A stretch of 64,000 nt of DNA. Source: an uncultured candidatus Porisulfidus sp. (lineage in GTDB: Bacteria > Pseudomonadota > Gammaproteobacteria > Poriferisulfidales > Poriferisulfidaceae). Where the stretch lies: NCBI GenBank assembly GCA_965199755.1, contig CBDASZ010000001.1, positions 352,001 to 416,000 of the forward strand, written 5' to 3'. Below, one piece after another: positions 1 to 30,375 of the stretch (position 1 is its first letter; each line of letters opens with the position of its first letter). Made by a program: the position numbers and the translations under genes. A model generated the notes under the pieces. That model worked only from the letters and a program-made list of their open reading frames with translations, was not told where the DNA came from and made no database searches.

Positions 1-149
1 ATTCCTGAGTGTGGTTGTGAGCTGGAAAAGCGCAGATTAGTCAGCCTTCTTGTAGAAGGCATAGATCAGGGTCTTTGTGATAAAGGAACTTAACACAAAC
101 CCCTTTTGTGTCTCATATATCGCCGAATATGATTTACAAAAATGCAGGC

Positions 150-2873: not shown

Positions 2874-4519
2874 TGCACCTCTTCGGGGAAGTGGCGCAAG
2901 ACCGACTGCAGCGGATTCGGAGCCGCTTGCCCCAGTCCACAGATCGAAGCGTCGCGCATGGTTTGGGACAACTCGTTGAGCAGGTCGGTATCCCAATGTT
3001 TCTCGCGCATCAGTGCGCTGGCCTTGCTGGTGCCGACGCGACAAGGGGTGCATTTGCCGCAGGATTCGCGGGCGAAGAAGGCCATGGCGTTACGTGCCGC
3101 ATCGCTGGCGCGATCGGCGTCGGACAGCACGATGACCGCACCGGAACCGAGAAAGCAGTTGTGTTGCATCATGGTGTCGAAGTCCAGAGGCAGGTCACCG
3201 AGATACGCGGGCAGGATACCACCACTGGCTCCGCCGGGGAAATAGCCGTAGAACTCGTGGCCTGGCAGCATGCCGCCACCGTACTCATCAATCAGTTCGC
3301 GTACGCTGATGCCGGCGGGGGCGAGGTGAACTCCGGGGATTTGGATGCGACCGCTGAGCGAGTATGAGCGCAGTCCGTGGCGTCCGCGGCGTCCGTGGTT
3401 GCGGTACCAGTCGGCACCATGCTCCAGAATCTTCGGAATCCACATCAGGGTTTCCATATTGTGTTCCAGAGTTGGCTGTCCGAACAGGCCGATTTCGGCA
3501 ATGAATGGGGGACGCAGGCGCGGCATGCCGCGGCGACCTTCAATGGATTCGATCATGGCGGATTCCTCGCCGCAGATATAGGCACCGGCACCACGGCGTA
3601 ACTCGATTGCCGGTAAGTCTGAATCAGACTCGCGCAGTTCTTGCAGCAGGGTCTCCAGCATCAGACGCACTCCGGTGTATTCGTCACGAATGTAGATGTA
3701 AACTGCTTGTGCCTCGATTAGATGAGCGGCCATCAGCATACCTTCGAGAAACGCATGCGGCTCGCGCTCTAGCCAGTAACGGTCCTTGAAGGTTCCCGGT
3801 TCGCCCTCGTCGATATTGACAGCGAGTAGGCGAGGGGGAGGGTAACTGCGCACGATTTGCCACTTGCGTGCGGCAGGGAAACCAGCACCTCCCAGACCGC
3901 GCAAGGTGGCGTACTCCATTGTGTCGATCAGTTGTTGGGGGTCCAGTTCCTTGCGCCGCAGGCGCATATAGTGGGCATAGGCTCCAGCCTCCTGAGCTTC
4001 GGCGCAACTTGGGACTGCTGGCGGCGTGTCTCCCAAAGCCCGTTCGCTCAAGGCCTGTGTGACCTCCTTAAGGTTGGCGTGTCCGATTGGGTGCTGTCCC
4101 GCCACGGCTACAGGGGCGGTATCGCAACGACCGACGCAAGAGACCGCTTGAATGCGCACATCGGGGAAGTTTGCGCGTAACTCATCAGCCAGTTCCAAAC
4201 CGCCCGCCATCGCGCAACTGATGGAGTCGCAAACGCGAACCGTGATCTCAGGAGGGTGGGTCTGGCCGTCCGTAATGTCGAAGTGATGATAGAAGGAAGC
4301 GACTTCGTGGACTTCTGCCACCGAAAGTTTCAGCCAGTCGGCTAGTGCAACTAGATGTTCCGGCGACAGGAAGCCGAAATGATCCTGCAACACGTGCAGA
4401 TGCTCCAGTAGCAGGTCGCGTCTTGCGGGTATGGGCTCCAATAGGTGCACGATGTCTTCACGGGCAACTGTAGAGACAGGTCGACCGCGTGGTTTGCGGG
4501 ATGCTTGGGACGGTGGCAT
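2870..4519 (-). CDS. formate dehydrogenase beta (diaphorase) subunit, NuoE-NuoF fusion
   Basis: CDSISC/CVGRC 2Fe-2S region, LRGLGGAGFP, NIDEGEPGTFKD, GAGAYICGEES, SCGKCTPCR and SICGLG motifs. Confidence 0.92.
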   Translation of the reverse strand: MPPSQASRKPRGRPVSTVAREDIVHLLEPIPARRDLLLEHLHVLQDHFGFLSPEHLVALADWLKLSVAEVHEVASFYHHFDITDGQTHPPEITVRVCDSISCAMAGGLELADELRANFPDVRIQAVSCVGRCDTAPVAVAGQHPIGHANLKEVTQALSERALGDTPPAVPSCAEAQEAGAYAHYMRLRRKELDPQQLIDTMEYATLRGLGGAGFPAARKWQIVRSYPPPRLLAVNIDEGEPGTFKDRYWLEREPHAFLEGMLMAAHLIEAQAVYIYIRDEYTGVRLMLETLLQELRESDSDLPAIELRRGAGAYICGEESAMIESIEGRRGMPRLRPPFIAEIGLFGQPTLEHNMETLMWIPKILEHGADWYRNHGRRGRHGLRSYSLSGRIQIPGVHLAPAGISVRELIDEYGGGMLPGHEFYGYFPGGASGGILPAYLGDLPLDFDTMMQHNCFLGSGAVIVLSDADRASDAARNAMAFFARESCGKCTPCRVGTSKASALMREKHWDTDLLNELSQTMRDASICGLGQAAPNPLQSVLRHFPEEVQ

Positions 4520-4523
4520 GGAA

Positions 4524-5069
4524 TCAGCGCAACAGGGCAGTGAAGAACTCTATAGATTCAGAAGAGTCCCACTCGCGAATGCCGCTGACCCAATAGAGTG
4601 CGTGGCCGTCTTGATCAAGTAGGAAGGTGGTCGGCAGAGCACGGATTCGCCAGTCGCTCAGGGCTAAATTCGCATCCACTAGAATCGGGAAATTGACCGG
4701 TGTTTCGCTCAGAAATTCCTGCATTTCTGGCGAGGGTCCAGAGTGAATTCCGATAATTTGGAGGCGCTCTGGGTCCATCGCCTGTTGCAGGCGGTTTAGT
4801 GCCGGCATCTCTTCACGACAGGGGGTGCACCACGTCGCCCAGAAGTTGATCAGCAGCATTTGCCCTCGTTCCTGACTCAATTGCCAGTGGTTGCCGTCGA
4901 GATCCGGCAAGGTGAAGTCTGGAGCCAGCCGGCCGGAGGCCGGATTCATGAACTTTCCAGTTGTGTCAGGTTTCAACTCTTCGGTTGTTTTAGTTTCCAG
5001 GAGGTATAGATAGCTTGAAATACCAAGGGCAAAGGCGCCGACCGCGGCGATGATCAGCAGTTGCTTCAT
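4524..5069 (-). CDS. membrane-anchored TlpA/ResA-family thioredoxin
   Basis: N-terminal hydrophobic anchor, APDFTL, NFWATWCTPC, LPTTFLLD. Confidence 0.9.
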   Translation of the reverse strand: MKQLLIIAAVGAFALGISSYLYLLETKTTEELKPDTTGKFMNPASGRLAPDFTLPDLDGNHWQLSQERGQMLLINFWATWCTPCREEMPALNRLQQAMDPERLQIIGIHSGPSPEMQEFLSETPVNFPILVDANLALSDWRIRALPTTFLLDQDGHALYWVSGIREWDSSESIEFFTALLR

Positions 5070-6439
5070 GGTTCGATTCCCAGTGTGTTGTCGTGGGCCC
5101 AGTTAGGGTCTTCCGCGCTCAGATCTCCGATGGGCGCGGCGAAGGCGTCAGCGACGATTTCCGGGATGTTGGCACCGGTGAGGGAGCGCAAGAAGGCTTC
5201 GAGATCCTGCTTTTCCTGCTCGCTCAGGCTCAGGGGGAAGATAAGGGGCGAGAGCAGTTCGTTCGGGATGCCGCCCTGATCGTAGAACTCAATCACTTCG
5301 CGTAAGGTGCTGAGTTGGCCGTTGTGCATGTATGGGGCGCTGAGTGCGATGTTGCGCAGGCTCTGGGTGCGGAACTTCCAGCGGTCGTTGGGGTTTTCAG
5401 TGACGCGATAGAGGCCGAGATCATTGGGCAGTTTCTGTTGCGTTACGGCGGCGATTTTCTCGTTGTCTACATCCACGAAAACACCCGGGGCGAGTTGTAC
5501 GCGGGTGGTTTCTGATTCATTGCCAACCTTTTTGCCGAATGAGACGGCATAGCCGAGACCGGTATTGTGAAACTGCTGATCGGTGAACAGGGCGTGTTCC
5601 TTGTTGATGGTGTGACAGGCGATGCAGTTCGCCTTGCCGGAGAAGACCGAGAAGCCGCGTTTGACGGATTCGTCCACGGCATCAGGCTGATTGCTGAAAT
5701 GCCAGCGATCGAAAGGGGAGTCCCCGGTGAGCAGGGTGCGCTGATAACTGGCTAGCGCTTGTCCGATGGTCACAATGCTTGGTGTGGCACCGTCGAAGGC
5801 GCGTTCGAACAGGCCGTCGTAATCTTTCATGCGCTGAATCTTGTTAATCACCCAGCCGATCGAGGGCGCGGCCATTTCATTGTGCGCGGTGATGGGCTGC
5901 CAGACTTGGTTCTCCAGACTGAACTCGCGACCGTCCAGAAACAGTCGGATCAAATAAGCGCTGTTGTATAGGCTTGGTGAGTTGCGCAGCACGGAGCGGC
6001 CTTCGACACCGACGGCAGTACGCATTTCATTATTGGTGAAGCCCTGTTCCGGGACATGGCAGGTGGCGCAGGAGAAGGTGTCATTGATCGACAGGCGGCG
6101 ATCGAAGAACAGCTTGCGACCCAGATCAATTTTGGTTCGGGTTAGCGGATTGTCAGTCGGGATGGGGACTGCGGGCAGTCCCAGAGGCGGGTTTTGCACA
6201 TAGCGGATCAGATCTTTCTTGACCCCACGGCGCTTTTCCAGACTGCGAGAGCGTGTCGTATAGTCATCGCTTTCGTAGCCTTCCTTGACGTCTCCCGGAC
6301 CTTGCGTGTGGGTGGCGTCAAACTGATCGGAGGCGTCGACCTCACCACTGGTTTGCGCCCAGACCGAAACGGACAGGGCACTGCCGCATGCGATGCCGAG
6401 GACGGCACAGAGAGTATCGGGCGAACGGCGCATGGCCAC
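5066..6439 (-). CDS. di-haem cytochrome c peroxidase/MauG-family protein (candidate MtoX maturase)
   Basis: Signal peptide, LGRKLFFD, CATCH and CIACH haem motifs, RNSPSL, LRNIALSAPYMHNG. Lies downstream of mtoX and SCO. Start GTG 6439 or ATG 6433. Confidence 0.88.
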   Translation of the reverse strand: MAMRRSPDTLCAVLGIACGSALSVSVWAQTSGEVDASDQFDATHTQGPGDVKEGYESDDYTTRSRSLEKRRGVKKDLIRYVQNPPLGLPAVPIPTDNPLTRTKIDLGRKLFFDRRLSINDTFSCATCHVPEQGFTNNEMRTAVGVEGRSVLRNSPSLYNSAYLIRLFLDGREFSLENQVWQPITAHNEMAAPSIGWVINKIQRMKDYDGLFERAFDGATPSIVTIGQALASYQRTLLTGDSPFDRWHFSNQPDAVDESVKRGFSVFSGKANCIACHTINKEHALFTDQQFHNTGLGYAVSFGKKVGNESETTRVQLAPGVFVDVDNEKIAAVTQQKLPNDLGLYRVTENPNDRWKFRTQSLRNIALSAPYMHNGQLSTLREVIEFYDQGGIPNELLSPLIFPLSLSEQEKQDLEAFLRSLTGANIPEIVADAFAAPIGDLSAEDPNWAHDNTLGIEP

Positions 6440-6441
6440 GC

Positions 6442-7134
6442 TCAGCCGGATGAAGCCTCCATCAGGAGCGTTTCCAGGTCCGCAATCAGGATGTCGGCAT
6501 GCAAGAACGAAACACTGTATATGTTGCGCACGCGCAAGTCCTGATCAATCAGATAGACCCGAAGCATGTGTGCGAAGTCGCCGGTGTAGTTGCCTTCCTC
6601 ATCGTATTCGCGCAGGGTGTATTGCCCGTAGTCCTCCAAAATGGGTTCCAGAGTTTCGCGATCCTTGGTGGTCAGGAACTGCCAGTCCACGCCTTCGCCA
6701 CCGAGTCCCTTGCCAAACTTGCGCATGGTTTCAGGGCTGTCGCGTTCGGGATCGAAGGATATGGAGAGCAGCCGGGAGGCTTGCGCCAGTTCCGGGCGCG
6801 CTTTCAGTTTGGCGTGCAACTTGTGGAATACGGCGTTGGCCAGCGGGCAGCCGTTGAGGTCAGAGCACTTGGTGTAGATGAAACTAAACAGTACCAGACG
6901 GTCACCCATCAGATCGAACAACTGGGTGGATTGCCCGTCTTCTTTCAGCACACTGCCGTCTGCGGCCTGCATGATGGGCGGCAACTGGTAGGTGCCTGGG
7001 GCGGGTGGCTCGTAGCTGAGTGTGCGCCATCCGGGCGCGAGAATTTCGTCGCGGCGATCAGAGGCGACCGCGGTGAGGCTCAGGCATAGCAAGAGCACAG
7101 GGGCGAGGATTCGCGAGCGGGGGCAGTGTGTCAT
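6442..7134 (-). CDS. SCO1/SenC-family copper chaperone
   Basis: Signal peptide, FIYTKCSDLNGCP, SISFDPERD, conserved His in AHMLRVYLID. Start moved to ATG 7134 because the longer ORF overlaps mtoX and a terminator. Confidence 0.88.
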   Translation of the reverse strand: MTHCPRSRILAPVLLLCLSLTAVASDRRDEILAPGWRTLSYEPPAPGTYQLPPIMQAADGSVLKEDGQSTQLFDLMGDRLVLFSFIYTKCSDLNGCPLANAVFHKLHAKLKARPELAQASRLLSISFDPERDSPETMRKFGKGLGGEGVDWQFLTTKDRETLEPILEDYGQYTLREYDEEGNYTGDFAHMLRVYLIDQDLRVRNIYSVSFLHADILIADLETLLMEASSG

Positions 7135-7182
7135 GGTCGGGAAAGTGGTATGTGTTTGACTATTGTATGTTGCGGTAGTTCC

Positions 7183-7213
7183 AAAAACAAAAGCCGCCCC
7201 TCGCGGGGCGGCT
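7183..7213 (-). terminator. intrinsic terminator downstream of mtoX
   Basis: Minus strand AGCCGCCCC-GCGA-GGGGCGGCT followed by TTTGTTTTT. Confidence 0.85.
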
Positions 7214-7255
7214 CTGTAGTGCCAGAGTCGAAGTCGTGAGACTTCGACGGAATCT

Positions 7256-8596
7256 TTATTCCGCGCTGGCGACGCGGTTGTCGTCAGGACGTTTGCCGTA
7301 CAGGGAGTAGGCACCAAAACGCATCTGATGCGACCGTCCGAGTTTCTCGGCATAGAAGTCAATCGTCCACTGATGGGCTAGTGCCTCGCCGTCCCAGTGG
7401 TACAGCTTGACGTACTGCTCATCCGCTTCTCCGGCCTTGTCCCAATTGCCTAGCAGGGAACTGGAGAAATAGACACGCTCACCGTCCCAGCTTTGCGAGA
7501 CCATGTTGACTTGTGAGCCGATCGCTTCCTCAAACACCTGATGCGGTGCATGCGGATCAGAGATGTCGAAGAAACGGGTCTTGCCGTCCATGAACGTGTT
7601 GATCCACAGGCCGTTGTCGTCCGCGGTGATGGAGATGTCTACCGGCAGAGGCACAGCGGAAGGCTCTCCGACGGAAGCAACAGCTTTGCCTTGCCATTCG
7701 CCGCTCTCATCTTCGTACAGCAGCCAGAGCTGAGAGGTCAGCGCGGTGGTGGTGAAGCAGTAGCGGTGATTCGGATCCCAGGCACAACGAATTTCGAGCG
7801 GGGCACCGGGCACGTCGAGTACCTTTATCGGGTTGCGCGTGTGCATGTCCCAGACCACCATGGTGTTGCCGAAACGCTGCATGGCTTCGCTGTCCTGCAG
7901 CATCTGGCCGAAGTCCATCATGTAGTTGGACCAGCCGGTGAAGGATGAGGTGAGCATGACATTGCTTTCCGCCTTCACGCGCACATCGTAGCCATAGCCG
8001 TCGGCGTGCTGGCCAGTTTTGACAGCGCCGCGCAGGTCTTCATCAGTCGGCATCCAGTGTGATGCGACAAACTCGCCGGCGTTGTTGTATTCCGCCAGTC
8101 CAGTGCGTCCGCCGTGATCAGCGTTGTTGGACAGTGCCGAGATCATGACTCGGCCGGGCAGAGCGTAGAAGGTGTGCGGGCCAACCATGCCGCCGGTTTT
8201 CTCGACGAAGTCGGTGATGACCTTGTGCAGGCTCGGCTGACGCGGGTTGCTGTGAATGTCAAACACGAAAATCTTGTTTGAGTCCAGACCGCCGGCCCAC
8301 AGATATTTGCGGTCATCGGATAGTCCAGAGTGATGTGCCTCGTTACGGCCACCGACTGACAGCACGCTGACAATGGAGCCATAAGTAGCGGAGTCGGGGT
8401 TGGTGTCGATGGTGACCAGTTTGTCCTGCTCGTCACCGATTCCTTCAACACCCAGCGTCCAGACATAAACGTAGTCTTCCTGGCCTTGAATCTTGGCGAT
8501 GTAGGGGGACATGCAGGTCTCATCCGCGTGTGCTGGCATTGTCCAGACCATTGCGGCCGCCATCACCAGGCCCGTGCTAAATAGAGTTTTCTTCAT
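7256..8596 (-). CDS. mtoX: methanethiol oxidase (SBP56/selenium-binding protein family)
   Basis: Sec signal then DETCMSPY, GQEDYVYVWTLG, EAHH, GPHT, GYGYD, SSFTGW and SSLLGNWDK (the two conserved Trp). GAGGA RBS before ATG 8596. Classic SCO/MauG neighbourhood. Confidence 0.92.
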   Translation of the reverse strand: MKKTLFSTGLVMAAAMVWTMPAHADETCMSPYIAKIQGQEDYVYVWTLGVEGIGDEQDKLVTIDTNPDSATYGSIVSVLSVGGRNEAHHSGLSDDRKYLWAGGLDSNKIFVFDIHSNPRQPSLHKVITDFVEKTGGMVGPHTFYALPGRVMISALSNNADHGGRTGLAEYNNAGEFVASHWMPTDEDLRGAVKTGQHADGYGYDVRVKAESNVMLTSSFTGWSNYMMDFGQMLQDSEAMQRFGNTMVVWDMHTRNPIKVLDVPGAPLEIRCAWDPNHRYCFTTTALTSQLWLLYEDESGEWQGKAVASVGEPSAVPLPVDISITADDNGLWINTFMDGKTRFFDISDPHAPHQVFEEAIGSQVNMVSQSWDGERVYFSSSLLGNWDKAGEADEQYVKLYHWDGEALAHQWTIDFYAEKLGRSHQMRFGAYSLYGKRPDDNRVASAE

Positions 8597-8685
8597 GAGT
8601 TTCCTCGTAGGTTGTGCGTTGTTATCCTGGCGATTGGGACCGTGCCACGAGCGACGCACGCAGCCTCCCGAATTGCCTGCCCCCC

Positions 8686-8713
8686 ATTATGGCGTAATCT
8701 GGGCGGGCGTCAA
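8686..8713 (-). promoter_or_regulatory. putative sigma70 promoter for mtoX
   Basis: TTGACG-16 nt-CATAAT on the minus strand, about 90 nt upstream of the start codon. Confidence 0.6.
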
Positions 8714-8783
8714 GTGCGGGCGCGAAAGGCAATGTGATAGTATCGGGTGGCGAAACCCAAGGGTGCCCACATCAGGCGAAATA

Positions 8784-9512
8784 ATGCACGAAGGAGCCGT
8801 ATCCGTTCATTCCGAATTTCGGAAATCGAGAAAGCGTCGAGTTCGCCGTGGCGAAGCCACGAACGATCTGGTAGTCAGCGCAAGCGCGGAGGGGAATGAG
8901 CAAGTATTTCCACGCATTCTTGATCTTTATGTGGGTTCGGGGAGCGTGGTCGCTGACGTGACTTATGGCAAGGGAGTCTTCTGGCGTCACGTGCCTGACG
9001 ACAAGTACACACTTCTGCCGAGTGACATTCAGGACGGGGTCGATTGCCGCAAACTGCCGTATAGAGACGGGGAGATTGACTGTGTGATTTTTGATCCGCC
9101 TTATATGCACTCACCAGGCGGGACCGCCCACGAGGGCCATACCCCGTTCGAAGAGCACTACCGCAATAACGGCACGGGCAATCAGACGGCCAGCAAGTAT
9201 CACGAGGCTGTGCTCGACTTGTATCAGGATGGTGGGAGTGAGGCGTGGCGCGTTTTGCGGGAGCGGGGTGTGCTGATCGTCAAGTGTCAGGACGAGGTGT
9301 GTTCCAATCGCCAGCGATTCACGCATGTCGAGATCATGCAGATGTATGAAGAGATGGGTTTTGTGGCCGAAGATTTGTTCGTCGTGATGCGCAAAAATCG
9401 CCCAGGAGTGAGTCGTGCTGTTCGGCAGGTGCACGCGCGCAAGAATCACTCTTACTTTCTGGTGTTTTGGAAGCGTGATGCGACGAAGCGGCGCTGGAAT
9501 CCTCCGAAATGA
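8784..9512 (+). CDS. amino (N6-A/N4-C) DNA methyltransferase
   Basis: SAM-binding-like ADVTYGKGVFW, catalytic FDPPY, LIVKCQD, HARKNHSYFLVF. Start uncertain. Confidence 0.8.
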   Translation: MHEGAVSVHSEFRKSRKRRVRRGEATNDLVVSASAEGNEQVFPRILDLYVGSGSVVADVTYGKGVFWRHVPDDKYTLLPSDIQDGVDCRKLPYRDGEIDCVIFDPPYMHSPGGTAHEGHTPFEEHYRNNGTGNQTASKYHEAVLDLYQDGGSEAWRVLRERGVLIVKCQDEVCSNRQRFTHVEIMQMYEEMGFVAEDLFVVMRKNRPGVSRAVRQVHARKNHSYFLVFWKRDATKRRWNPPK

Positions 9513-10003
9513 ATTCCGTTGAACTGCTGGTCGAGATAATCAAGGAGCATGCACCGGAAGACATTTGGCAAGCCTCTCCGCTCATAGGGTATCGTTTGCT
9601 CGGCAACACAAACAGGGGCGAGATCGGAGAGGAGTTTATCTGCAGGTATTTGCGTGCCGCTGGGATTGAAGCCACGGGCGGTGGACGGGTGGCTGCAACT
9701 GATATGACCATTGGAGAATTTAGATTTGAAGTGAAAACAGCCTCTCTCGGAGCAAAAGGAGGCTTCCAGTTCAATCATGTGCGGCTGGATCGTCGCTACG
9801 ACTATCTGCTTTGCCTTGGGATCTGTCCGCAGGAAATTGTGTTCAACATGTGGAGGAAAGGAGAGGTTGCAGAAGAACGCGCAGGGCGGCTTGTGAGGAT
9901 GGCAGAAGGACAGGCCGTCACCTACAAGCTCACCAAGAAGTTGGCAGATATGCAAGCCATAGAGGAGCTGCCTAATGTTTTGCGTGATGCACTGGAGTTG
10001 TGA
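9509..10003 (+). CDS. putative PD-(D/E)xK restriction-type endonuclease
   Basis: GEIGEE...TD-x8-EVK catalytic pattern. ATGA overlap with the methyltransferase. Confidence 0.65.
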   Translation: MNSVELLVEIIKEHAPEDIWQASPLIGYRLLGNTNRGEIGEEFICRYLRAAGIEATGGGRVAATDMTIGEFRFEVKTASLGAKGGFQFNHVRLDRRYDYLLCLGICPQEIVFNMWRKGEVAEERAGRLVRMAEGQAVTYKLTKKLADMQAIEELPNVLRDALEL

Positions 10004-10422
10004 TGGGAAATATGAATAAAAGAGTGCGGTCAGTGAGTACTGCGTTTCGCTCTTACTTGCGCGAAGTCTCGCAGGTACGGTTAACTGGTCAGGCGACTGA
10101 GAACAGTTATCAATCGGCGTTGAAAGTGCTTGTTGAAGTGTTAGGTGGGAATGGCGTACGTGCCCTAAATGAACCGGCACAAGTTGCTTGTGGAGCACCG
10201 GATTTGGTTGTTAGTCGTAATGATGTGCCAATCGGACACATCGAATGCAAAGATGTCGGAATTGATCTTGATCGGGTTGAAGATACTGAACAGTTGAAGC
10301 GCTATCATCAAGGACTTCCCAATCTTGTGCTGACAAACTATCTGGAATTCCGCTGGTATGCCGATGGCGAACTGCGTGAGGTGGAGTGCCTTGGACACAT
10401 AAGAAAAAAATTGTTGCGATAA
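10000..10422 (+). pseudogene. N-terminal fragment of a large single-polypeptide (type IIG/ISP-like) restriction-modification enzyme
   Basis: ATENSY, GAPD, GHIECKD, QLKRY, LTNYLEF match the N-terminal nuclease domain. Only 140 aa, with no methyltransferase motifs. Confidence 0.7.
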
Positions 10423-10631
10423 TGTGTTCTCAAATCTCACCCTCAATATGGTCAGACTCTAAAGCAGACATTTTGAAGGCAAGGGCAGAGGCATTTTCAG
10501 TACTACGGGAACACTCTATGGAAGAAGTTCGCGATTTAGTTGAAGAAAAACTGGCTTTAATAAGACGCGACATCCATAAGATTCGGGAACAAGAAGCCAA
10601 AGAGCATGAAGGCGAACAACGCTTCGAATAA
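10386..10631 (+). pseudogene. probable C-terminal remnant of a large (STAND/ATPase-like) protein
   Basis: PSIWSDSKADIL..R..H..VR..EQRFE resembles the PxSWSGS...RFE C-terminus of large putative defence ATPases. Recognised from memory only. Confidence 0.4.
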
Positions 10632-10645
10632 GTTCGGGGGTACAC

Positions 10646-10969
10646 ATGGCCAATCAGTTCGTGACATTAACGGAACGTGCGGCGGAGCAGATCCGTCCGC
10701 AGCTACCGGAAGGCGAGGAAGGAGTCGCTTTGCGCTTGGCGGTGCGCAAACTCGAAGACGGCAGTTTCCACTACGCAATGGGATTTGATGTGGCCAATCG
10801 TGAGGGGGACCAGACTTTCATGGCGCACAAGATACCGTTGGTGGTCGGCGCGGACTCTCTGGCGCTGGTGCGAGGGATGACCGTGGAGTATGCGGAGCTG
10901 AAACCTGGCGAGCATCGGTTTATTTTCCTCAACCCCAACGATCCGAACTATGTTCCGCCCGAAGACTGA
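10646..10969 (+). CDS. dsrR: DsrR, IscA/HesB-like protein lacking cluster cysteines
   Basis: LTERAAEQI, LRLA, DGSFHYAMGFD and FIFLNPNDPNYVPP, with no Cys. Matches the DsrR pattern rather than IscA/ErpA (CGCG absent). Confidence 0.8.
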   Translation: MANQFVTLTERAAEQIRPQLPEGEEGVALRLAVRKLEDGSFHYAMGFDVANREGDQTFMAHKIPLVVGADSLALVRGMTVEYAELKPGEHRFIFLNPNDPNYVPPED

Positions 10970-10987
10970 TCTCATTGAGACGGACTG

Positions 10988-11905
10988 ATGATGACAGGAC
11001 AGGTCGGGTCATTGCTGGGCGCGGCAGTCCTATTGCTGGTACTGGGGCTCGGTGCGTGGGCGTACAGATGTCGTCTTCGGCCTTATACGGCGATTCGACA
11101 TTGGGCGGACCGGATGCGCGGCGGGGATCTTTCCGCGCGGCTGGCTGTCCCGAGACGGGGCGGGTTCGCGGAACTGGCAAAAGACATTAATGTGCTGGCG
11201 GAAATGGTCCAGACCTTGTCGCGCACGACGGAAGAGCAGCTGCAGGAGTTCACCGACTACGCTGCGATGAAGGAACGCACCCGAATCTCCGGGGAGTTGC
11301 ATGATTCACTGGCGCAAACCTTGGCCAGCATCAAAATTCAGGTGCGAGTGTTGGACGAGACCTTGCATCAGGGCGACGAGGAGCGCGTATGGCAGGAGTT
11401 GGAGCAGGTCGAGAACAGTCTGGAAGAAGCGAACATTGAGTTGCGTGAATTAATTGCTCATTTCCGCGCACCGGTCGGGGAGGCCGGGCTGGTGCCGTCC
11501 GTTGAGCGGGCGGTGGAGCGGTTTCGTAGAGAGTGCCCTGGGGTGCGGGTGTTTTTGCAGAACCGGTGGGAGGAGTTGCATCTGCCGCTCGACCATGAAG
11601 TGGAGATCGTGCGCATCGTGCAGGAAGCGCTGGCTAACGTGCGCAAGCACTCTCACGCTAATACTGTGCGCATCATGATTGACGCGGATGCGGCTCGTGG
11701 ACAGGGGCGGGTGTTGGTCGAGGATGACGGAGTGGGTTTTGCGCATGCACCAGTGGAAGATGACACTGGAGCTCATGTTGGGCTGAATTTGTTGCGAGAC
11801 CGTGCCAGTCGTCTGGGCGGGAGCTTGCGGGTCGAGAGTGAACTTGGAGAAGGGGTGAGAATTGCGCTGGAATTTGAGACGATGGCGCAAGAGGTGGCAG
11901 CATGA
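10988..11905 (+). CDS. NarX-like (HisKA_3) sensor histidine kinase
   Basis: Single TM helix, HAMP, ELHDSLAQ H-box, QEALANVRKH, VEDDGVGF, HVGL. Confidence 0.9.
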   Translation: MMTGQVGSLLGAAVLLLVLGLGAWAYRCRLRPYTAIRHWADRMRGGDLSARLAVPRRGGFAELAKDINVLAEMVQTLSRTTEEQLQEFTDYAAMKERTRISGELHDSLAQTLASIKIQVRVLDETLHQGDEERVWQELEQVENSLEEANIELRELIAHFRAPVGEAGLVPSVERAVERFRRECPGVRVFLQNRWEELHLPLDHEVEIVRIVQEALANVRKHSHANTVRIMIDADAARGQGRVLVEDDGVGFAHAPVEDDTGAHVGLNLLRDRASRLGGSLRVESELGEGVRIALEFETMAQEVAA

Positions 11906-12600
11906 GCGTTCTGAAAGTCACCGTGATTGATGATCACACGCTGTTTAGGGAAGGCTTGCAGGGTTTGCTGGAGCGTCATGGTCTCAAGGTACTGGACTCG
12001 GTGGGTGATTCGGAGTCCGGGTACGCAGCGGTGCAGGCACGGCAACCGGATGTGGTGCTTTTGGATTTGCGATTGCCGCAGACTGATGGTCTGGAGATAT
12101 TGCGTACGATGAAGGCGGACAAGGAGTGTCCGCCGATTGTGATGCTGACTACCAGTGATCATGAACAGGATCTGGTGGAGGCCTTGCGCGCGGGCGCAAG
12201 TGGCTACCTGCTGAAGGATATGGAACCAGATGATTTGGTGGCCGCGCTGCGCGCCATTGTGTCAGGAGAGACTGTGGTGGCACCGAGTTTGGCACCGGCG
12301 CTGGCGCGGGTGGTGCAGGGACACGAGCCAGCACCCGCACCGAAAGACGAAGAAGGGCTGTTTGATGCGCTGACTCCGCGCGAGCGGGAGATATTGATTC
12401 TGTTAGCGGAAGGATTGAGCAACCGTGGGATTGGCAATAGTTTGGGAATTTCCGAAGGGACGGTGAAAGCCCATGTCAAGGCGATCTTGCGCAAACTTGA
12501 TGTGGCGTCGCGCGTGGTGGCGGCCGTGCTCGCGGTTGAGCACGGACTGGCCGCACCGAAAGCGATTGGTGAGATGCAGGTAGGGCGGGATAATTTTTAG
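11902..12600 (+). CDS. NarL/LuxR-family response regulator
   Basis: IDDH, VLLDLRLP, GYLLK, LTPREREIL..TVKAHV HTH. ATGA overlap with the kinase. Confidence 0.93.
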   Translation: MSVLKVTVIDDHTLFREGLQGLLERHGLKVLDSVGDSESGYAAVQARQPDVVLLDLRLPQTDGLEILRTMKADKECPPIVMLTTSDHEQDLVEALRAGASGYLLKDMEPDDLVAALRAIVSGETVVAPSLAPALARVVQGHEPAPAPKDEEGLFDALTPREREILILLAEGLSNRGIGNSLGISEGTVKAHVKAILRKLDVASRVVAAVLAVEHGLAAPKAIGEMQVGRDNF

Positions 12601-13251
12601 GTGTTGGGTGTAGCCGCTAGAGCTTGAATCTGGTTTGGGTTTTAGAGTTGTTATGAAACTTGTTTTTTGGTTATTGACCGGACAAAGCTTTTCGAGACCA
12701 CATCTTGCTGCAGCTTGTGCCAACGCATTACGATCAGGTCGGGCCATGACTGACCAAAACAAAACCACGCAGCTGATTGTGCAACTCACTATAGACATCT
12801 GGGAAGAGATAACCATGCCCCCGGCTGGGTAGGCTTTGCTGCTTTCTGGGTCCACTGGAGTTTGTGATCCACCTACGATTGCTCCACTTTCTGATACGAA
12901 CAAGCTCAAGATTGATGTCGTTGACAAGCGGAAGGAACTTGATTCTTTTGATCCAGAAGGAGGTTTCCGAAAAATTGGTGTCACTGCACGCTCATGGGAA
13001 CAGAGAGACAAGTCACCTCCTTCTCAAACTTCGAGAGACATGTTGAGAGATATGATTAAAAACAAAACTACAAGTTCAGTTCCTGCTTCAGATGTTTCCC
13101 TTCTAGCGCTAGACAAGCCGATAAAAGACAGTAGAGAATAAGTCTGCAACAAAGAGGCTTTGGCCTATTGCCCGCTACCAATCACATGTCTCTAGGTGGT
13201 ACACAGACCGTAGGTGTGCCAGTGGGAGTTAGGGTCTTCACCCGCAAATAA

Positions 13252-13285
13252 AAGTCATAAATTTGTAACTCTCGCTCTATACGAT
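13252..13285 (+). promoter_or_regulatory. Pho box plus -10 element
   Basis: AAGTCAT-AAAT-TTGTAAC (PhoB consensus CTGTCAT-N4-CTGTCAY), then 10 nt, then TACGAT, upstream of a phosphate porin. Confidence 0.75.
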
Positions 13286-13350
13286 GCGTCACCAGCACCT
13301 GCTTGCAGGTCTGGTCTATCTTAAATTTGCACACTCACGAGGGTTTATCC

Positions 13351-14898
13351 ATGAGTAGCTACTCACGCCACGTTGCTGCGTCAGTTGTTTTTTTCTTCGC
13401 GCTTTCGCCCCCAGCCATCGGACTTGCCTTCGCGGATGAGCTCGAACAGTTAAAGCGTGAAAACGTACAGATGAAGGAGATGCTCATGCAGATGCAGGAG
13501 CAGCTTCAGAGCGTTATCGCCAAGACCAATGCAATGGAAAGTCAGGTTGAGGCTAATAAGGAAGACATCACGATTAAGACCACAGGTGGTGGGATTCAGG
13601 TGAAATCCAGCAACGGCGACACGTTTAAGGTTGGCGGTCGATTGATGCTCGATCATGACTCCTATGATTCATTCTGGAACGGAGGCGATGGTTCTGCGGA
13701 GGAGAACGAAATTCGCCGTTCACGGATCACCTTCAGCGGCAATTCAGGCAAGAACTGGGCGTACAAGTTAACCGTTGATATTGACCACGAAGACGAAAAC
13801 GCTTCCATAGATACGGGTTGGTTGCAATATTCCGAGGGCGGTGTTGGCGTAAAAGTGGGTAAGTTCGGGCGTCCCGGCATGATCGAGGAGCGCACCAGTT
13901 CCAAGTGGATTTCCACGATTGAACGTTCCATCATCAATGAATTGGCTGGCGCGACCATCAGCAAACCCAATTTTGGCGGTGTGGCACTGAGCTATAAGAC
14001 CGAGGGTGATCTGCCGATGAGTGCCGAGTTCGGTGTGTATGACGACGAGATCGACGAGGACGATGGTTCAGATATCTACGGGATTGGTTACCGCTTGGCC
14101 ATCTCGCCGGAATTTGGCGACAACTCCTTCGCACATTTGGGTGCTTCCGGGTATTCTGTAGATTACAAGGGTCAGGATCTGCGCATGCGCTCACGTATGG
14201 GTGTTCACACCGCAGGCCGTCCGTTCGAGACCCGGAAAATGGCGACGGATGATATTACGCAGGTGGGTGTTGAACTGGCGTATGTTCGCGGACCTTTCTC
14301 GCTGCAGGCTGAATACATGAATGTGGAGTCAGACGGGACCGATAACGGAGCATGCGTGCCCCCTGAGGTGGCGATCAAACGCAATGACGGTGGGTCGGCA
14401 GTCCGAGATGATGATGGCAAAGTCCAGTTGGATTCATCAGCCAGCAATACCTGTGATATGGAGATGGATGGTTTCTACTTGCAGGCTGCTTATACGCTGA
14501 CTGGAGAGACCCGTGGCTACAAAGCCGGTTCAGGTGCCTTCGCCGCGATCAAGCCGAAAAGCGCAAGCGGTGCTTGGGAGTTGGTCGCGCGTTATGAAGA
14601 TGCGGAAGTCGACGTTGATGCACAAGGTTTGAATTCTGAGTTGAACCGCATGGTGCTGGGCCTCAACTGGTACGCCAACAAGAACCTCAAGTTCATGTTG
14701 AACTATGTCGATTCGGAAATAGATGGCTGCTATGGCAATATGTGGATGGTCGACAGGGATGTGTCATTTGAGAGTGTTCCCTCGGACAATGTAGACCACG
14801 CCAGCGGTGATGGTATGTTCGTGCATAAAGCTTGTGGAAATGGCATGGATAAAGATGACGGCAATGCCATTTCACTGCGAGCCCAGTACGTGTTCTGA
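13351..14898 (+). CDS. OprO/OprP-family phosphate-selective porin
   Basis: Signal peptide, coiled coil, GGRLMLD, EIRRSRI, TSSKWISTIERS, LTGETRGY, GAWELVARY, LGLNWY, C-terminal RAQYVF. Confidence 0.9.
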   Translation: MSSYSRHVAASVVFFFALSPPAIGLAFADELEQLKRENVQMKEMLMQMQEQLQSVIAKTNAMESQVEANKEDITIKTTGGGIQVKSSNGDTFKVGGRLMLDHDSYDSFWNGGDGSAEENEIRRSRITFSGNSGKNWAYKLTVDIDHEDENASIDTGWLQYSEGGVGVKVGKFGRPGMIEERTSSKWISTIERSIINELAGATISKPNFGGVALSYKTEGDLPMSAEFGVYDDEIDEDDGSDIYGIGYRLAISPEFGDNSFAHLGASGYSVDYKGQDLRMRSRMGVHTAGRPFETRKMATDDITQVGVELAYVRGPFSLQAEYMNVESDGTDNGACVPPEVAIKRNDGGSAVRDDDGKVQLDSSASNTCDMEMDGFYLQAAYTLTGETRGYKAGSGAFAAIKPKSASGAWELVARYEDAEVDVDAQGLNSELNRMVLGLNWYANKNLKFMLNYVDSEIDGCYGNMWMVDRDVSFESVPSDNVDHASGDGMFVHKACGNGMDKDDGNAISLRAQYVF

Positions 14899-15073
14899 CC
14901 CCGACAAGAAACAATCAGGCGTGTTCGCAATGTCTGAGGGCCAACTACAGAAACCCACTGCTTAGGGAAACTGAGTGCGGATTTTTATCGCATTTCCCTT
15001 CAATATGTTAAACTCCAAGTCCATGATTCTTGCCGAATTCCCATCTGTTGCGGATTCGGGCCGGAGCGATCCG

Positions 15074-16156
15074 ATGCCATTTCCTCTCTGGTCGATGCGA
15101 CCGATCTCCCTTTACCGACTGCGTTGCCTGTCTCTGGCGATGCTGTGCGCCTTGTTCGGGACTGCTCCTGTGCATGCGCTGTCAGACGGGGAAGTCGACA
15201 GTCTGCTCGATGAGGGAGAGAGAATGCAGGCGCTGATGGTGCGCATGCAAACACAACTGGGACAACCCGCCTTGGCGGGTGCTCTCAGGCCCACAAATTC
15301 CGCACGTCGCACCAGAATACAGAGTCTCTCGCCATGGGCACCCATGTCCGCCATGCTGGAAAGCTCGCTGCGCGAGCGCTGGTTCCAGTCGATTGAGCGT
15401 GGCGTGTTAGGTGTGTTCTCTCAAGTGCCGAGTGCTTGGGAAAACGAAGGCCAAACCACCGTACCGGTGGGTTTCGTCAGAGGTGAAGAGTCGCCCTGGT
15501 ACGGAGCCTTGCAGGTGCACAGCCCCACCTCAGGGTCTGGGGTGGCTTCCGCTTCCGGGATCGCCGGGGTTCGGGCCAGACTGGCAGTAGCACCGACGTT
15601 TGAAGACGGCAGTTTCCTGCATTTCGGCGTCTCCTTCCATTCGATGGACACCACGATGCGACGCCCGGAACTGGCTATCCAGGACCCGGAGCACACAGGC
15701 GTGAAGAACTTCAGCCGCGCCCTTGGCGTTGACCTCGGATACGTGCAGGGAGATTACGCGGTGCAAGCGCAGTATCTCACCTCAACCGGACGCGACCCGG
15801 AACAGCTGTACTGGGGCTCATCCTCCGATCGCAAACGCTCGCGTGACGGGTTTTACATCAGCGGTGCCTGGAGACTGAGTGGTGAACAGACACCGGATCG
15901 TTATGCGCCCGGCCTGCTGACGCACCTGCAGCCACGCGACGAGGAAGGTGTCTGGGATGTCGTGGTGCGTTATGCCAATCTCGGCGAATCTCCCAGCGAC
16001 TCAAGACGCAACCCTTCGGGTTCCATGGCTCTGGGTGTGCACTGGCGCGCCAATCCGACCTTCGCACTGGAGTTGGATTTTGTAGAGGGAAGTGGCGAGA
16101 GTCTGGACTTGCCGTTTGGCAGCGATCTGAGCCTGCGCGGCGTTTTCTCCTTCTGA
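15074..16156 (+). CDS. divergent, internally shortened OprO/P porin paralogue
   Basis: WFQSIERG, RLAVAP..HFG, QAQY, DGFYISGAWRLSGE, GVWDVVVRY, LGVHW and terminal F. Lacks the N-terminal barrel strands. Start uncertain. Confidence 0.65.
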   Translation: MPFPLWSMRPISLYRLRCLSLAMLCALFGTAPVHALSDGEVDSLLDEGERMQALMVRMQTQLGQPALAGALRPTNSARRTRIQSLSPWAPMSAMLESSLRERWFQSIERGVLGVFSQVPSAWENEGQTTVPVGFVRGEESPWYGALQVHSPTSGSGVASASGIAGVRARLAVAPTFEDGSFLHFGVSFHSMDTTMRRPELAIQDPEHTGVKNFSRALGVDLGYVQGDYAVQAQYLTSTGRDPEQLYWGSSSDRKRSRDGFYISGAWRLSGEQTPDRYAPGLLTHLQPRDEEGVWDVVVRYANLGESPSDSRRNPSGSMALGVHWRANPTFALELDFVEGSGESLDLPFGSDLSLRGVFSF

Positions 16157-16295
16157 TCTAATGCTTGTTGTGCTTGAGTGCAAACGGGAACGTTTGCTCT
16201 CCTTGCTGTGCTTGGTGTTTGCTGGGCAGGCTTCCGGTGCGAAGGCAACGTACAGGCAGGAACCGTCAGTTTCGTAAGTGTGATGATGAAATGAT

Positions 16296-16412
16296 CCCCG
16301 GCTGACAGGAGGACAAAATTATCAGCCGGGGCTCAAAAGGGGCCGACATCCGTGTCAGCCATAAAGCCGGTTCATCCTGTCCGGCCGCTAACCTCACTGG
16401 GAGGAGTGAGTT
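16296..16412 (-). ncRNA. putative structured 3' RNA (four hairpins) downstream of a small ORF
   Basis: Stems with loops CCUCCC, ACAGGAUGAA, ACGGAU and AUUUUGUCCUCC. G-U wobbles form only on the minus strand. Confidence 0.5.
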
Positions 16413-16414
16413 TT

Positions 16415-16492
16415 TTAGTCGAGGTAGCCCCGCCGTGCCACGGCGTAGACCATTGCCCAGACAATTACTGCAAGTGCGATTTCAATTCCCAT
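16415..16492 (-). CDS. 25-aa single-pass membrane peptide MGIEIALAVIVWAMVYAVARRGYLD
   Basis: ATG..TAA read directly, AGAGGT RBS 7 nt upstream, own promoter. Too short for the ORF track. Confidence 0.6.
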   Translation of the reverse strand: MGIEIALAVIVWAMVYAVARRGYLD

Positions 16493-16547
16493 GTTTTAGA
16501 CCTCTTTGGTTGTTGGAAAGTTCCTTATCAGAACTTGTATGAATACT

Positions 16548-16575
16548 AATATAAGGAAATTTTTATATAAGTCAA
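16548..16575 (-). promoter_or_regulatory. putative sigma70 promoter overlapped by a palindromic operator
   Basis: TTGACT-16 nt-TATATT, with ATATAA-N8-TTATAT at 16549-16568. Confidence 0.6.
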
Positions 16576-16709: not shown

Positions 16710-17333
16710 TCACTGTCGTCCTTCCAAATCCCTCAAATGCGGCGCGAGATAGACAAGTTGCGCTGCCAAAAACACCACTGGCAGCCCAAGCGCCAGCCCG
16801 TACAGTTTGAACTGCACCCAGAAATCCTCAGGGAACTCATAAGCGACATACAGATTGAGTGCGCCGCCCAGCACAAAAAACCCCATCCAGATCACATTCA
16901 GGTTCCGCCACAGCCGCGCGTCTTCAAGCGGCAGACTGCGCGACAGCATGCGCTCCACCAGGGTTTTCGCTCCGATCCAGTGCGAAGCCATAAATCCAAG
17001 CGCCAGTGCCCAGTAGAATACGGTCGGCTTCCACTTGATGAACAGAGGATCCTTTAGCAACAGTGTGAGTCCGCCTGCGACCCAGACCACCAGCAACGCC
17101 GCCAGGTGCGTAGTGTTCAGATGGCCAATCCCCTTTAGAATGACACATTGCACCAGCATGGCCAGCATCAGGACCGCCGTCGCGAAATAAATGCGATCAA
17201 CAGCCGCACCTGCGGTGAGTTCAACTTGCGATAATTCGCTGAACGATTCCACCCAAAGTGGCGGCACGTCAGAATAGAAGAAGTAGGCCACCACAAACAG
17301 CGCGACCGGGATGACTTCGAGGAACAGCTTCAT
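16710..17333 (-). CDS. yciB: inner membrane protein YciB (septation protein A)
   Basis: Multi-TM, IYFATAVLM, FIKWKPT, WVQFKLYG. Confidence 0.9.
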   Translation of the reverse strand: MKLFLEVIPVALFVVAYFFYSDVPPLWVESFSELSQVELTAGAAVDRIYFATAVLMLAMLVQCVILKGIGHLNTTHLAALLVVWVAGGLTLLLKDPLFIKWKPTVFYWALALGFMASHWIGAKTLVERMLSRSLPLEDARLWRNLNVIWMGFFVLGGALNLYVAYEFPEDFWVQFKLYGLALGLPVVFLAAQLVYLAPHLRDLEGRQ

Positions 17334-30299: not shown

Positions 30300-30375
30300 G
30301 CGCCCGTGGCTCAGTGGATAGAGCACTGGCCTCCGGAGCCAGGGGTCGCAGGTTCGAATCCTGCCGGGCGCGCCA
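30300..30375 (+). tRNA. tRNA-Arg (CCG)
   Basis: Acceptor GCGCCCG/CGGGCGC, D-loop, anticodon stem CTGGC-CTCCGGA-GCCAG, GGTTCGAATCC, encoded CCA. TATAAT upstream. Confidence 0.97.

Follow-up and report, generated by a model that had tools for sequence, protein, structure and literature searches.

In the genome of an uncultured candidatus Porisulfidus sp. (assembly GCA_965199755.1), positions 352,001 to 416,000 of contig CBDASZ010000001.1 were analysed as one stretch of 64,000 nucleotides (nt), referred to here as the window, in whose numbering all positions are given. Between two convergent genes, yciB/IspA on the minus strand (ending at 16710) and the second of two Porin_O_P-like genes on the plus strand (ending at 16156), lies a compact cassette that is read from the minus strand. 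It comprises a promoter, a 5'-terminal hairpin, a Shine-Dalgarno (SD) sequence, an open reading frame (ORF) of 25 amino acids (aa) and, in the 130 nt behind the stop codon, a module of four hairpins (Table 1). On the minus strand the cassette forms a transcription unit of its own, in which a genuine small ORF precedes a conserved structured RNA, and its predicted transcript is a stand-alone, strongly promoted RNA of about 250 nt.

Table 1. Features of the cassette and of its surroundings in the window; identity is the mean pairwise value by segment over 16 species
Feature	Position	Strand	Identity (%)	Details
Whole cassette	16575-16296	minus		promoter, 5' hairpin, ribosome-binding site, 25-aa ORF, four hairpins; sequence read and fold
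Sigma-70-type promoter	16575-16548	minus	86.9	-35 TTGACT 16575-16570; 16-nt A/T-rich spacer; -10 TATATT 16553-16548
5' untranslated region			59.5	
5'-terminal hairpin	16536-16518	minus		AAGUUCU / GGAACUU, loop GAUAA
Shine-Dalgarno GAGG	16504-16501	minus		8 nt ahead of ATG; sequence read
25-aa ORF	16492-16415	minus	71.1	ATG 16492 to TAA 16415; MGIEIALAVIVWAMVYAVARRGYLD plus TAA; ORF list
Stop codon to hairpin 1			71.7	
Hairpin 1	16410-16393	minus		CUCACU / AGUGAG, loop CCUCCC, anti-SD-like; fold
Hairpin 2	16386-16365	minus	82.7	loop ACAGGAUGAA, contains CAGGAUG; GGA 16377-16375; fold
Hairpin 3	16360-16341	minus	85.1	GGCUGAC-ACGGAU-GUCGGCC; loop CGGA, or ACGGAU with the A-U pair open; GGA 16351-16349
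Linker			55.8	
Hairpin 4 (terminator segment)	16331-16296	minus	68.4	stem CCCCGGCUGA / UCAGCCGGGG, loop AUUUUGUCCUCC; CCUCC 16312-16308 in loop
First Porin_O_P-like gene	13303-14898	plus		family match E 2.9e-45
Second Porin_O_P-like gene	14975-16156	plus		weak family match, E 7e-08
38-aa frame	16178-16294	plus		weak likeness to a choice-of-anchor-I C-terminus (8/19 identical, E 0.006)
tRNA gene	30300-30372	plus		sole Rfam match at gathering score in the window

This arrangement had been drawn from the letters alone in a preliminary description, which claimed a promoter, a ribosome-binding site and a hydrophobic 25-aa ORF on the minus strand, followed directly after the stop by four stems with the loops CCUCCC, ACGGAU and two others. 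All of these were found again, the former by reading the sequence, a promoter scan and the ORF list, the latter by folding the minus strand. Relative to shuffled sequences the minus-strand fold has a z-score of -2.77 and was equalled by 1 of 200 shuffles, and the plus-strand fold has a z-score of -1.86. The minus strand was assigned because G-U pairs present in the relatives fit this strand only and would read A-C on the opposite one, which bears out in alignments what had been argued from a single sequence. The observation of the cassette is confirmed as real and beyond chance.

Comparative searches place the cassette in two genera of one order, namely the genus of the source organism (g1, 16 genomes) and a second genus (g7, five genomes), which belongs to another family and carries the cassette in a diverged version. 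A profile of the peptide matched 21 of the 53 genomes of the order, with 16/16 in the source genus, 5/5 in the second and 0/32 elsewhere. A covariance model of the 3' part built from the source genus (R1) gave exactly one match in each of its 16 genomes and none in the remaining 37 genomes of the order, and a model of the second-genus 3' module (R2) recovered the same five second-genus genomes, in six copies, and nothing else. BLASTN matched 13 of 61 related genomes, including 11 of the 15 other members of the source genus, with identity in two blocks, the promoter and the end of the ORF together with the hairpins; the only match outside the genus (22 nt, AT-rich, in G047) did not align and was rejected. 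The peptide pattern W-x2-V-(F/Y)-x5-GYLD-stop, searched in one genome per prokaryotic species, returned 29 loci: the 15 other members of the source genus, three larger and more AT-rich genomes, and 11 others that lack a matching ORF and were judged to be chance. Among 400 scored genomes of the class, credible profile matches came from the source genus only. Three weak matches outside it (E 0.002-0.009) were set aside, two lying within 554-aa frames and G440 showing neither an ORF end nor hairpins.

The surroundings of the cassette vary. In the source genus the upstream neighbour is yciB in the genome analysed here and in 7 of 10 frames tested from relatives (the choice of frame may account for the other three), and the downstream neighbour is a convergent choice-of-anchor-I gene or a porin gene; the cassette of the second genus has dnaX or a LysR gene upstream and queA downstream. 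Because the peptide and the RNA module co-occur although the genomic neighbours differ, the cassette is, on this comparative evidence, a self-contained unit in which peptide and RNA tail always stand together. A dispersed repeat or repetitive extragenic palindromic (REP) element is ruled out by its single copy in its own genome, where the 553-nt spacer occurs once in 1.39 Mb, and by its one copy per genome in the genus. One genome, G044, carries two tandem copies 399 bp apart (L078, G044:C1:2249288-2249356; L096, 2249687-2249755), the second of which lacks the -35 region and has a V to A change in the peptide. The cassette is core to this lineage of small-genome sponge symbionts.

The ORF is kept in all 16 genomes of the source genus and in all six copies of the second. 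Across 17 aligned sequences a W, a V and the C-terminal GYLD are invariant and every length difference is in frame, and over the 24 codons common to all 16 species of the source genus variable columns occur at codon positions 1, 2 and 3 in 14, 13 and 21 cases, respectively. Between the genera the codons have been recast to another base composition with the motif retained. Judged by its in-frame indels, third-position bias and invariant residues, the ORF evolves as a protein. The peptide is 23-28 residues long and has an acidic N-terminus, about 17-20 hydrophobic residues and then R/K/H-x-GYLD; in the three larger, more AT-rich genomes of the pattern search it has 23 aa and reads ME(F/L)L..LVWSTVFFCMRKGYLD. 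We read it as a predicted single-pass membrane peptide, and the invariant motif suggests a specific partner. A comparison of the peptide with Pfam and NCBIfam gave no family even at E up to 10, a Nic96 row (E 0.21) being noise, and among 5.8 billion predicted proteins three unnamed ones matched a relative's longest open frame.

The RNA behind the ORF shows constraint of a different kind. Pairs were counted over the four hairpins on the 16-species alignment, and both sides of a pair have changed for two pairs in hairpin 2, three in hairpin 3 (where 99.1% of cells are paired) and four in hairpin 4. For the four hairpins together, 95.0% of cells pair and 9 of 26 pairs have changed on both sides; either value was reached by 0 of 500 shuffles, and when the partner was shifted by 1-3 columns as a control, pairing fell to 21.6-47.3%. 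The support for hairpin 1 is that of sequence conservation, and at its site a CCUC / GAGG hairpin of shorter length forms in most relatives. Conservation of hairpins 2 and 3 is above that of the ORF, and the RNA tail is judged to be under selection of its own. In the second genus roughly 30 nt spanning GACAGGAAGUCAAACCCUCCUUAGA contain one variable column in six copies, and the ORF varies at many positions. The stop codon lies 7-12 nt ahead of the first 3' hairpin. Kissing between the GGA loops and CCUCC was considered and rejected, the complementarity being just 3-5 nt and showing no convincing covariation when judged by eye.

Among the 15 other genus members, 14 have a U-run behind hairpin 4, which is an intrinsic terminator in the relatives; the U-run is degenerate in the source strain, where a proper one is absent (GGGGAUCAUUUCAUC), and G014 is likewise without it. 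As a separate observation, hairpin 1 and the A-run after the stop codon, read on the plus strand (16393-16416), give a hairpin resembling a terminator, with a T-run, that faces the porin gene. This A-run behind the peptide stop codon is peculiar to the source strain, in which hairpin 1 and the A-run may now also end plus-strand transcripts.

The promoter matches 10 of 12 consensus positions in the scan and predicts an RNA start near 16541. A single promoter-like match in 1.1 kb, where 0.7 are expected, is not significant alone; the promoter is credible because its 30-mer has no second copy in the 1.39-Mb genome, because no segment of the cassette is better conserved over the 16 species, and because the cassette is not a dispersed repeat. 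Its -10 element and the ATGA that follows are common to the second genus too. No second copy of the promoter box was found in the source genome that would point to a regulon. In most members of the genus, although not in the source strain, an A/T-rich box (AAAAATATTTCCTTATTTATC) lies about 50 nt upstream of the -35 element (e.g., L029 about 1290-1315) and is similar to the promoter spacer (AAAAATATCCTTATATTA); the box may serve some regulator as a repeated binding site. In the second genus an 8-bp palindrome (AAGTATAT N4 ATATACTT) extends across the -10 element. Further downstream, a 5' hairpin stands at the equivalent site in 15 of 16 minimum-free-energy (MFE) folds of the 5' untranslated regions, with stem sequences that differ strongly among species; a long-range helix proposed by RNAalifold on the full alignment conflicts with this better-supported local hairpin and was discarded. 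The SD equivalents read GGAG(A) in most relatives and AGGAG in the second genus.

RNA-library contigs of 159-205 nt from four metatranscriptome runs of one study match the cassette at 100% identity and together span 16264-16526, one of them extending past hairpin 4 to 16264. Within the 901 nt examined, the only other contig touches 16000-16032 and ends at 16032 inside the porin gene, and the contig-free flanks are not to be read as silent. These contigs fit a short, abundant RNA that runs from the predicted start (about 16541) to somewhat past the last hairpin. The preliminary description had named three findings that would count against it, namely a lack of transcription, a lack of conservation in relatives and membership of a dispersed repeat family; RNA-library contigs cover the region, and neither of the other two was encountered.

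The loops of hairpins 2 and 3 resemble binding sites of the post-transcriptional regulator CsrA. According to a 2020 review (PMC7652899), the repeats of CsrB read CAGGA(U/A/C)G, the consensus from SELEX (ligands evolved systematically through exponential enrichment) is RUACARGGAUGU with ACA and GGA invariant, the majority of CsrA ligands are hexaloops closed by AC and GU residues, and one CsrA dimer is able to bridge sites 10-63 nt apart. In the source strain the two sites read CAGGAUG (hairpin 2) and AC-ACGGAU-GU (hairpin 3), so that both own hairpins present GGA in a short hairpin within an ACA/GU or CAGGA(U/A/C)G context; ACACGGAUGU of hairpin 3 fits ACANGGANGU and agrees with the SELEX core ACARGGAUGU at 9 of 10 positions. 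The GGA of hairpin 2 has an unpaired probability of 1.00 and is present in the loop in 16/16 species of the source genus. The distance between the two GGA motifs is 26 nt in the source RNA, within the bridging range, and 24-25 nt in those relatives in which both loops retain GGA. In the second genus a hairpin GAC-AGGA(A/U)-GUC is found in 6/6 copies, of which GAC-AGGAA-GUC contains CAGGAAG. The source genome contains 34 instances of ACANGGANGU and 968 of CAGGA[UAC]G, and same-strand pairs within 10-63 nt occur at two places, one of them the cassette. The GGA loops pointed out in the preliminary description are thus kept across two genera and fit the site consensus as given in PMC7652899. We put the prospect that CsrA binds the two GGA hairpins at about even.

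The presumed partner is at hand: csrA (PF02599 above cut-off) is encoded in the source genome and in 21/21 cassette-bearing genomes. Covariance models of known antagonist RNAs found no counterpart in the source genome, RsmY reaching 17.2 of 57 bits, RsmZ nothing and CsrB 10.9 of 71 bits, all at other places than the cassette. A scan for GGA density gave one non-coding-looking candidate for another Csr-type RNA, G000:C1:617435-617564 (minus), which was rejected as not conserved in the genus (2/16, one a 19-nt match); it has 10 GGA in 130 nt and no open frame across, and overlaps in part a His/Cys-rich protein ORF on the opposite strand. Neither Hfq nor ProQ was found in the source genome (98.9% complete). 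Of the 15 other genomes of the genus 13 have Hfq, the exceptions being G014 (76% complete) and G010, and all five of the second genus have it. The source strain and G014, in neither of which Hfq was found, are also the two whose cassette is without the terminator U-run.

The second recurrent element of the module is rich in C. CCUCC follows the stop codon, within hairpin 1, in 15/16 species of the source genus, and in the second genus a C-rich loop occurs together with an CCCUCCUUA that stays unpaired between hairpins and is invariant in 6/6 copies, so that the C-rich elements claimed in the preliminary description exist in both genera. The CCUCC element mimics an anti-SD sequence because the 16S ribosomal RNA of the same genome ends in CACCUCCUA (...GGAUCACCUCCUA). 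Pairing of these elements with SD sequences in trans is tentative, and we hold it to be somewhat improbable; pairing with an SD sequence in cis seems to us more doubtful again. At its gathering score Rfam gives no match at the cassette, and a permissive search of the region returned eight noise rows (seven snoRNA models and ar14; E 0.86-9.2). The suggestion that the RNA belongs to the cuckoo/ar14 family finds no support in these scores: RF02344 reaches 14.1 bits (E = 2, 16290-16395 minus), its gathering score being 58.8.

Because codon bias and invariant residues in the ORF stand beside covarying hairpins with kept loops, the cassette is, on the alignments, a candidate for a dual-function RNA, with protein-level selection on the ORF and a separate constraint on the non-coding part. 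We favour a reading in which one transcript serves as the messenger RNA (mRNA) of a membrane peptide and carries a 3' module that would bind CsrA and present anti-SD elements, and give it a probability of roughly 0.5. A single CsrA dimer could bridge both GGA hairpins, and an abundant cassette RNA would then titrate CsrA, or CsrA would stabilise and control the RNA. The CCUCC elements could pair with SD sequences, either the RNA's own or those of other mRNAs. A ribosome terminating 7-12 nt upstream of the module may reshape hairpin 1, which would couple the functions of peptide and RNA. Of the dual-function transcript first suggested in the preliminary description, the real gene and the separately constrained RNA module stand, and the mechanism it offered, with CsrA sponging, targeting of ribosome-binding sites or processing to a small RNA from the 3' untranslated region, is putative. 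A bolder version, which we think improbable, is that the main CsrA antagonist in these reduced sponge-associated sulfur oxidisers is a translated RNA instead of a non-coding Csr/Rsm RNA, and that translation of the peptide sets the exposure of CsrA-capturing hairpins and anti-SD mimics. If true, the cassette would be the first regulatory RNA that binds CsrA and carries a conserved small ORF, and it might form the core of post-transcriptional control in the Hfq-less lineage of the source strain.

Several observations weigh against the dual-function reading with CsrA as partner. The number of loop sites is two, compared with 5-22 in the classical Csr/Rsm sponges, and in the second genus just one GGA hairpin is clear. 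The loop GGA of hairpin 3 is kept in 14/16 species, being GAA in G007 and lost as a motif in G015, and GGA-loop hairpins are common by chance, with 217 in the source genome by a loose scan that is too noisy for use. The co-occurrence of csrA does not discriminate because cassette-free genomes also carry the gene (22 of 32 in the order). The helix of hairpin 1 is almost invariant, with zero compensatory changes. On the side of the C-rich elements, CCUCC in the terminator loop is present in only 8/16 species of the source genus, and pairing of CCUCC with the RNA's own SD is not consistent in full-length MFE folds, for which reason occlusion of the own SD by a CCUCC helix was rejected. Finally, the RNA contigs give neither strand nor ends, stem from one study and may include carried-over DNA.

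A plainer account takes the transcript for an ordinary mRNA of a small membrane protein, with hairpins that only stabilise or terminate it and with GGA and CCUCC motifs devoid of a function in trans. The protein-level selection on the ORF is clear, a 5' hairpin and a terminator are normal features of an mRNA, the terminator serves the convergent gene too in the relatives, and the chance frequency of GGA-loop hairpins in the loose scan points the same way. Stabilising stems should, however, accept any loop, yet the GGA is kept in 16/16 and 14/16 species while the stems change. Nor does this account predict that hairpins 2 and 3 exceed the ORF in conservation, that the second-genus stretch of about 30 nt (GGA hairpin and CCCUCCUUA) shows a single variable column over six copies against a varying ORF, or that one set of motifs is common to two 3' modules linked by neither RNA model. 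We regard it as unlikely. Less likely again is a dual-function RNA that acts by base pairing only, its CCUCC seeds occluding the SD sequences of other mRNAs and its GGA loops being structural or serving another partner. The CCUCC behind the stop codon in 15/16 species, the invariant unpaired CCCUCCUUA in 6/6 second-genus copies and the mimicry of the anti-SD of the 16S ribosomal RNA speak for such a role, as does ar14 as the only Rfam family with any resemblance; C-rich seeds also need no Hfq, which was not found in the source genome. The ar14 score is at noise level, however, CCUC is able to pair locally with GAGG in most members of the genus, a bare anti-SD has no obvious target specificity, and the better-conserved GGA hairpins would be left unexplained.

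A type I toxin-antitoxin locus, named as an alternative in the preliminary description, would consist of a membrane toxin whose structured mRNA is silenced by anti-SD elements and an antisense RNA. The peptide has the size and the hydrophobic core of such toxins (23-28 aa), the mRNA is strongly promoted and highly structured with anti-SD-like sequences, and G044 carries its two copies in tandem. Type I toxin loci tend to show a patchy, multi-copy pattern, whereas the cassette is single-copy in 16/16 genomes of the genus, including the most reduced (1.39 Mb), and is syntenic behind yciB in the source genome and 7 of the 10 relatives tested. A consensus scan, which cannot exclude an antitoxin, gave no antisense promoter-like site in the GC-rich G012, and in the AT-rich G024 one weak antisense site was within chance (4 found, 2.5 expected). 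The SD is not consistently sequestered in the folds, and a precise invariant peptide motif suggests a specific partner. With so universal, single-copy and syntenic a cassette, this alternative receives little support and is in our view improbable. A regulatory nascent peptide, that is, a ribosome-arrest or leader ORF whose translation sets the fold of the downstream RNA, is the least credible of these accounts. The invariant W and the invariant C-terminal residues have a fixed spacing, with the W 13 residues before the last codon, and TnaC has its W likewise 13 residues ahead of its last codon; with the stop codon 7-12 nt ahead of the first 3' hairpin, a terminating ribosome must open that hairpin. 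In the source genus, however, there is no downstream gene in the unit, which passes from a terminator to a convergent gene, and the peptide is a typical transmembrane helix.

Beyond the cassette, the two Porin_O_P-like genes of the window form a tandem pair on the plus strand. The likeness of the 38-aa frame, on the plus strand next to hairpin 4, is to the very C-terminal end of the convergent choice-of-anchor-I gene, which in the relatives terminates at the cassette terminator; the frame is probably what remains of a gene that the reduced genome has lost.

In sum, the cassette is real, conserved and previously unannotated; the interpretation in the preliminary description is plausible and has partial support, and the CsrA and ribosome-binding-site mechanism at its core is putative. 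Few dual-function RNAs are known, and this one is a clean candidate, being short, self-contained and supported by covariation. It adds an unannotated gene and RNA family, and its sharp invariant peptide motif and RNA motifs are open to in vitro work with CsrA that does not require culturing the symbiont. In small sponge-symbiont genomes each retained regulator is likely to matter. RNA regulation is not apparent as a subject of the literature mentioning Porisulfidus, as judged on titles and abstract starts.

Compared with known systems, the cassette shares several RNA features with the Csr/Rsm small RNAs (sRNAs; CsrB, CsrC, RsmX/Y/Z). Its GGA loops stand in CsrB-type (CAGGAUG) and SELEX-type (ACANGGAUGU) contexts, and it has a strong promoter of its own and a terminator hairpin. 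Its sites also fall within the 10-63 nt bridging range reported in PMC7652899. Unlike these sRNAs, it has two loop sites instead of 5-22, a conserved translated ORF and C-rich elements, and it does not match RF00018, RF00166 or RF00195; a GacA/UvrY-type upstream box was not noticed by eye, no scan for it having been made. Few GGA sites are also used by McaS of E. coli. This base-pairing sRNA is reported as a CsrA antagonist (PMC7652899). A protein-coding transcript proposed to titrate CsrA is known as well in the flaA mRNA of C. jejuni, which is described as acting on CsrA activity where the classical antagonist sRNAs are absent; flaA, in contrast, has a long mRNA that encodes an abundant structural protein, and its circuit includes the antagonist FliW. 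A 2025 review of dual-function RNAs (PMC12612679) presents small ORFs within CsrA-binding sRNAs as a prospect to look for, not as a known case.

Similar in layout are the CcsR (cuckoo, ar14, RF02344) RNAs of alphaproteobacteria, reported to be linked to the 3' untranslated region of ccaF1, a gene for a small DUF1127 protein. CcsR RNAs carry a CCUCC-type anti-SD loop motif. As in the cassette, a small-protein gene is followed on one transcript by hairpins with CCUCC-type loops, but the cassette peptide is a membrane helix of 23-28 aa and not a DUF1127 protein, GGA hairpins are added, and the host belongs to the gammaproteobacteria. RNAIII/delta-hemolysin, SgrS/SgrT, Spot 42/SpfP and AzuCR likewise combine a small ORF with a conserved regulatory part on one short transcript. 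RNAIII of S. aureus contains the ORF of a 26-aa hydrophobic peptide followed by hairpins whose C-rich loops pair with SD sequences. Spot 42 has one CsrA-bound GGA site, as reported in PMC12612679. These RNAs share no homology with the cassette, in which the RNA part looks suited to binding a protein (CsrA) in addition to base pairing. A member of none of the curated families tested, the cassette would, by analogy, work most like a small CsrA-binding RNA joined to an RNAIII- or CcsR-type dual-function RNA with C-rich loops.

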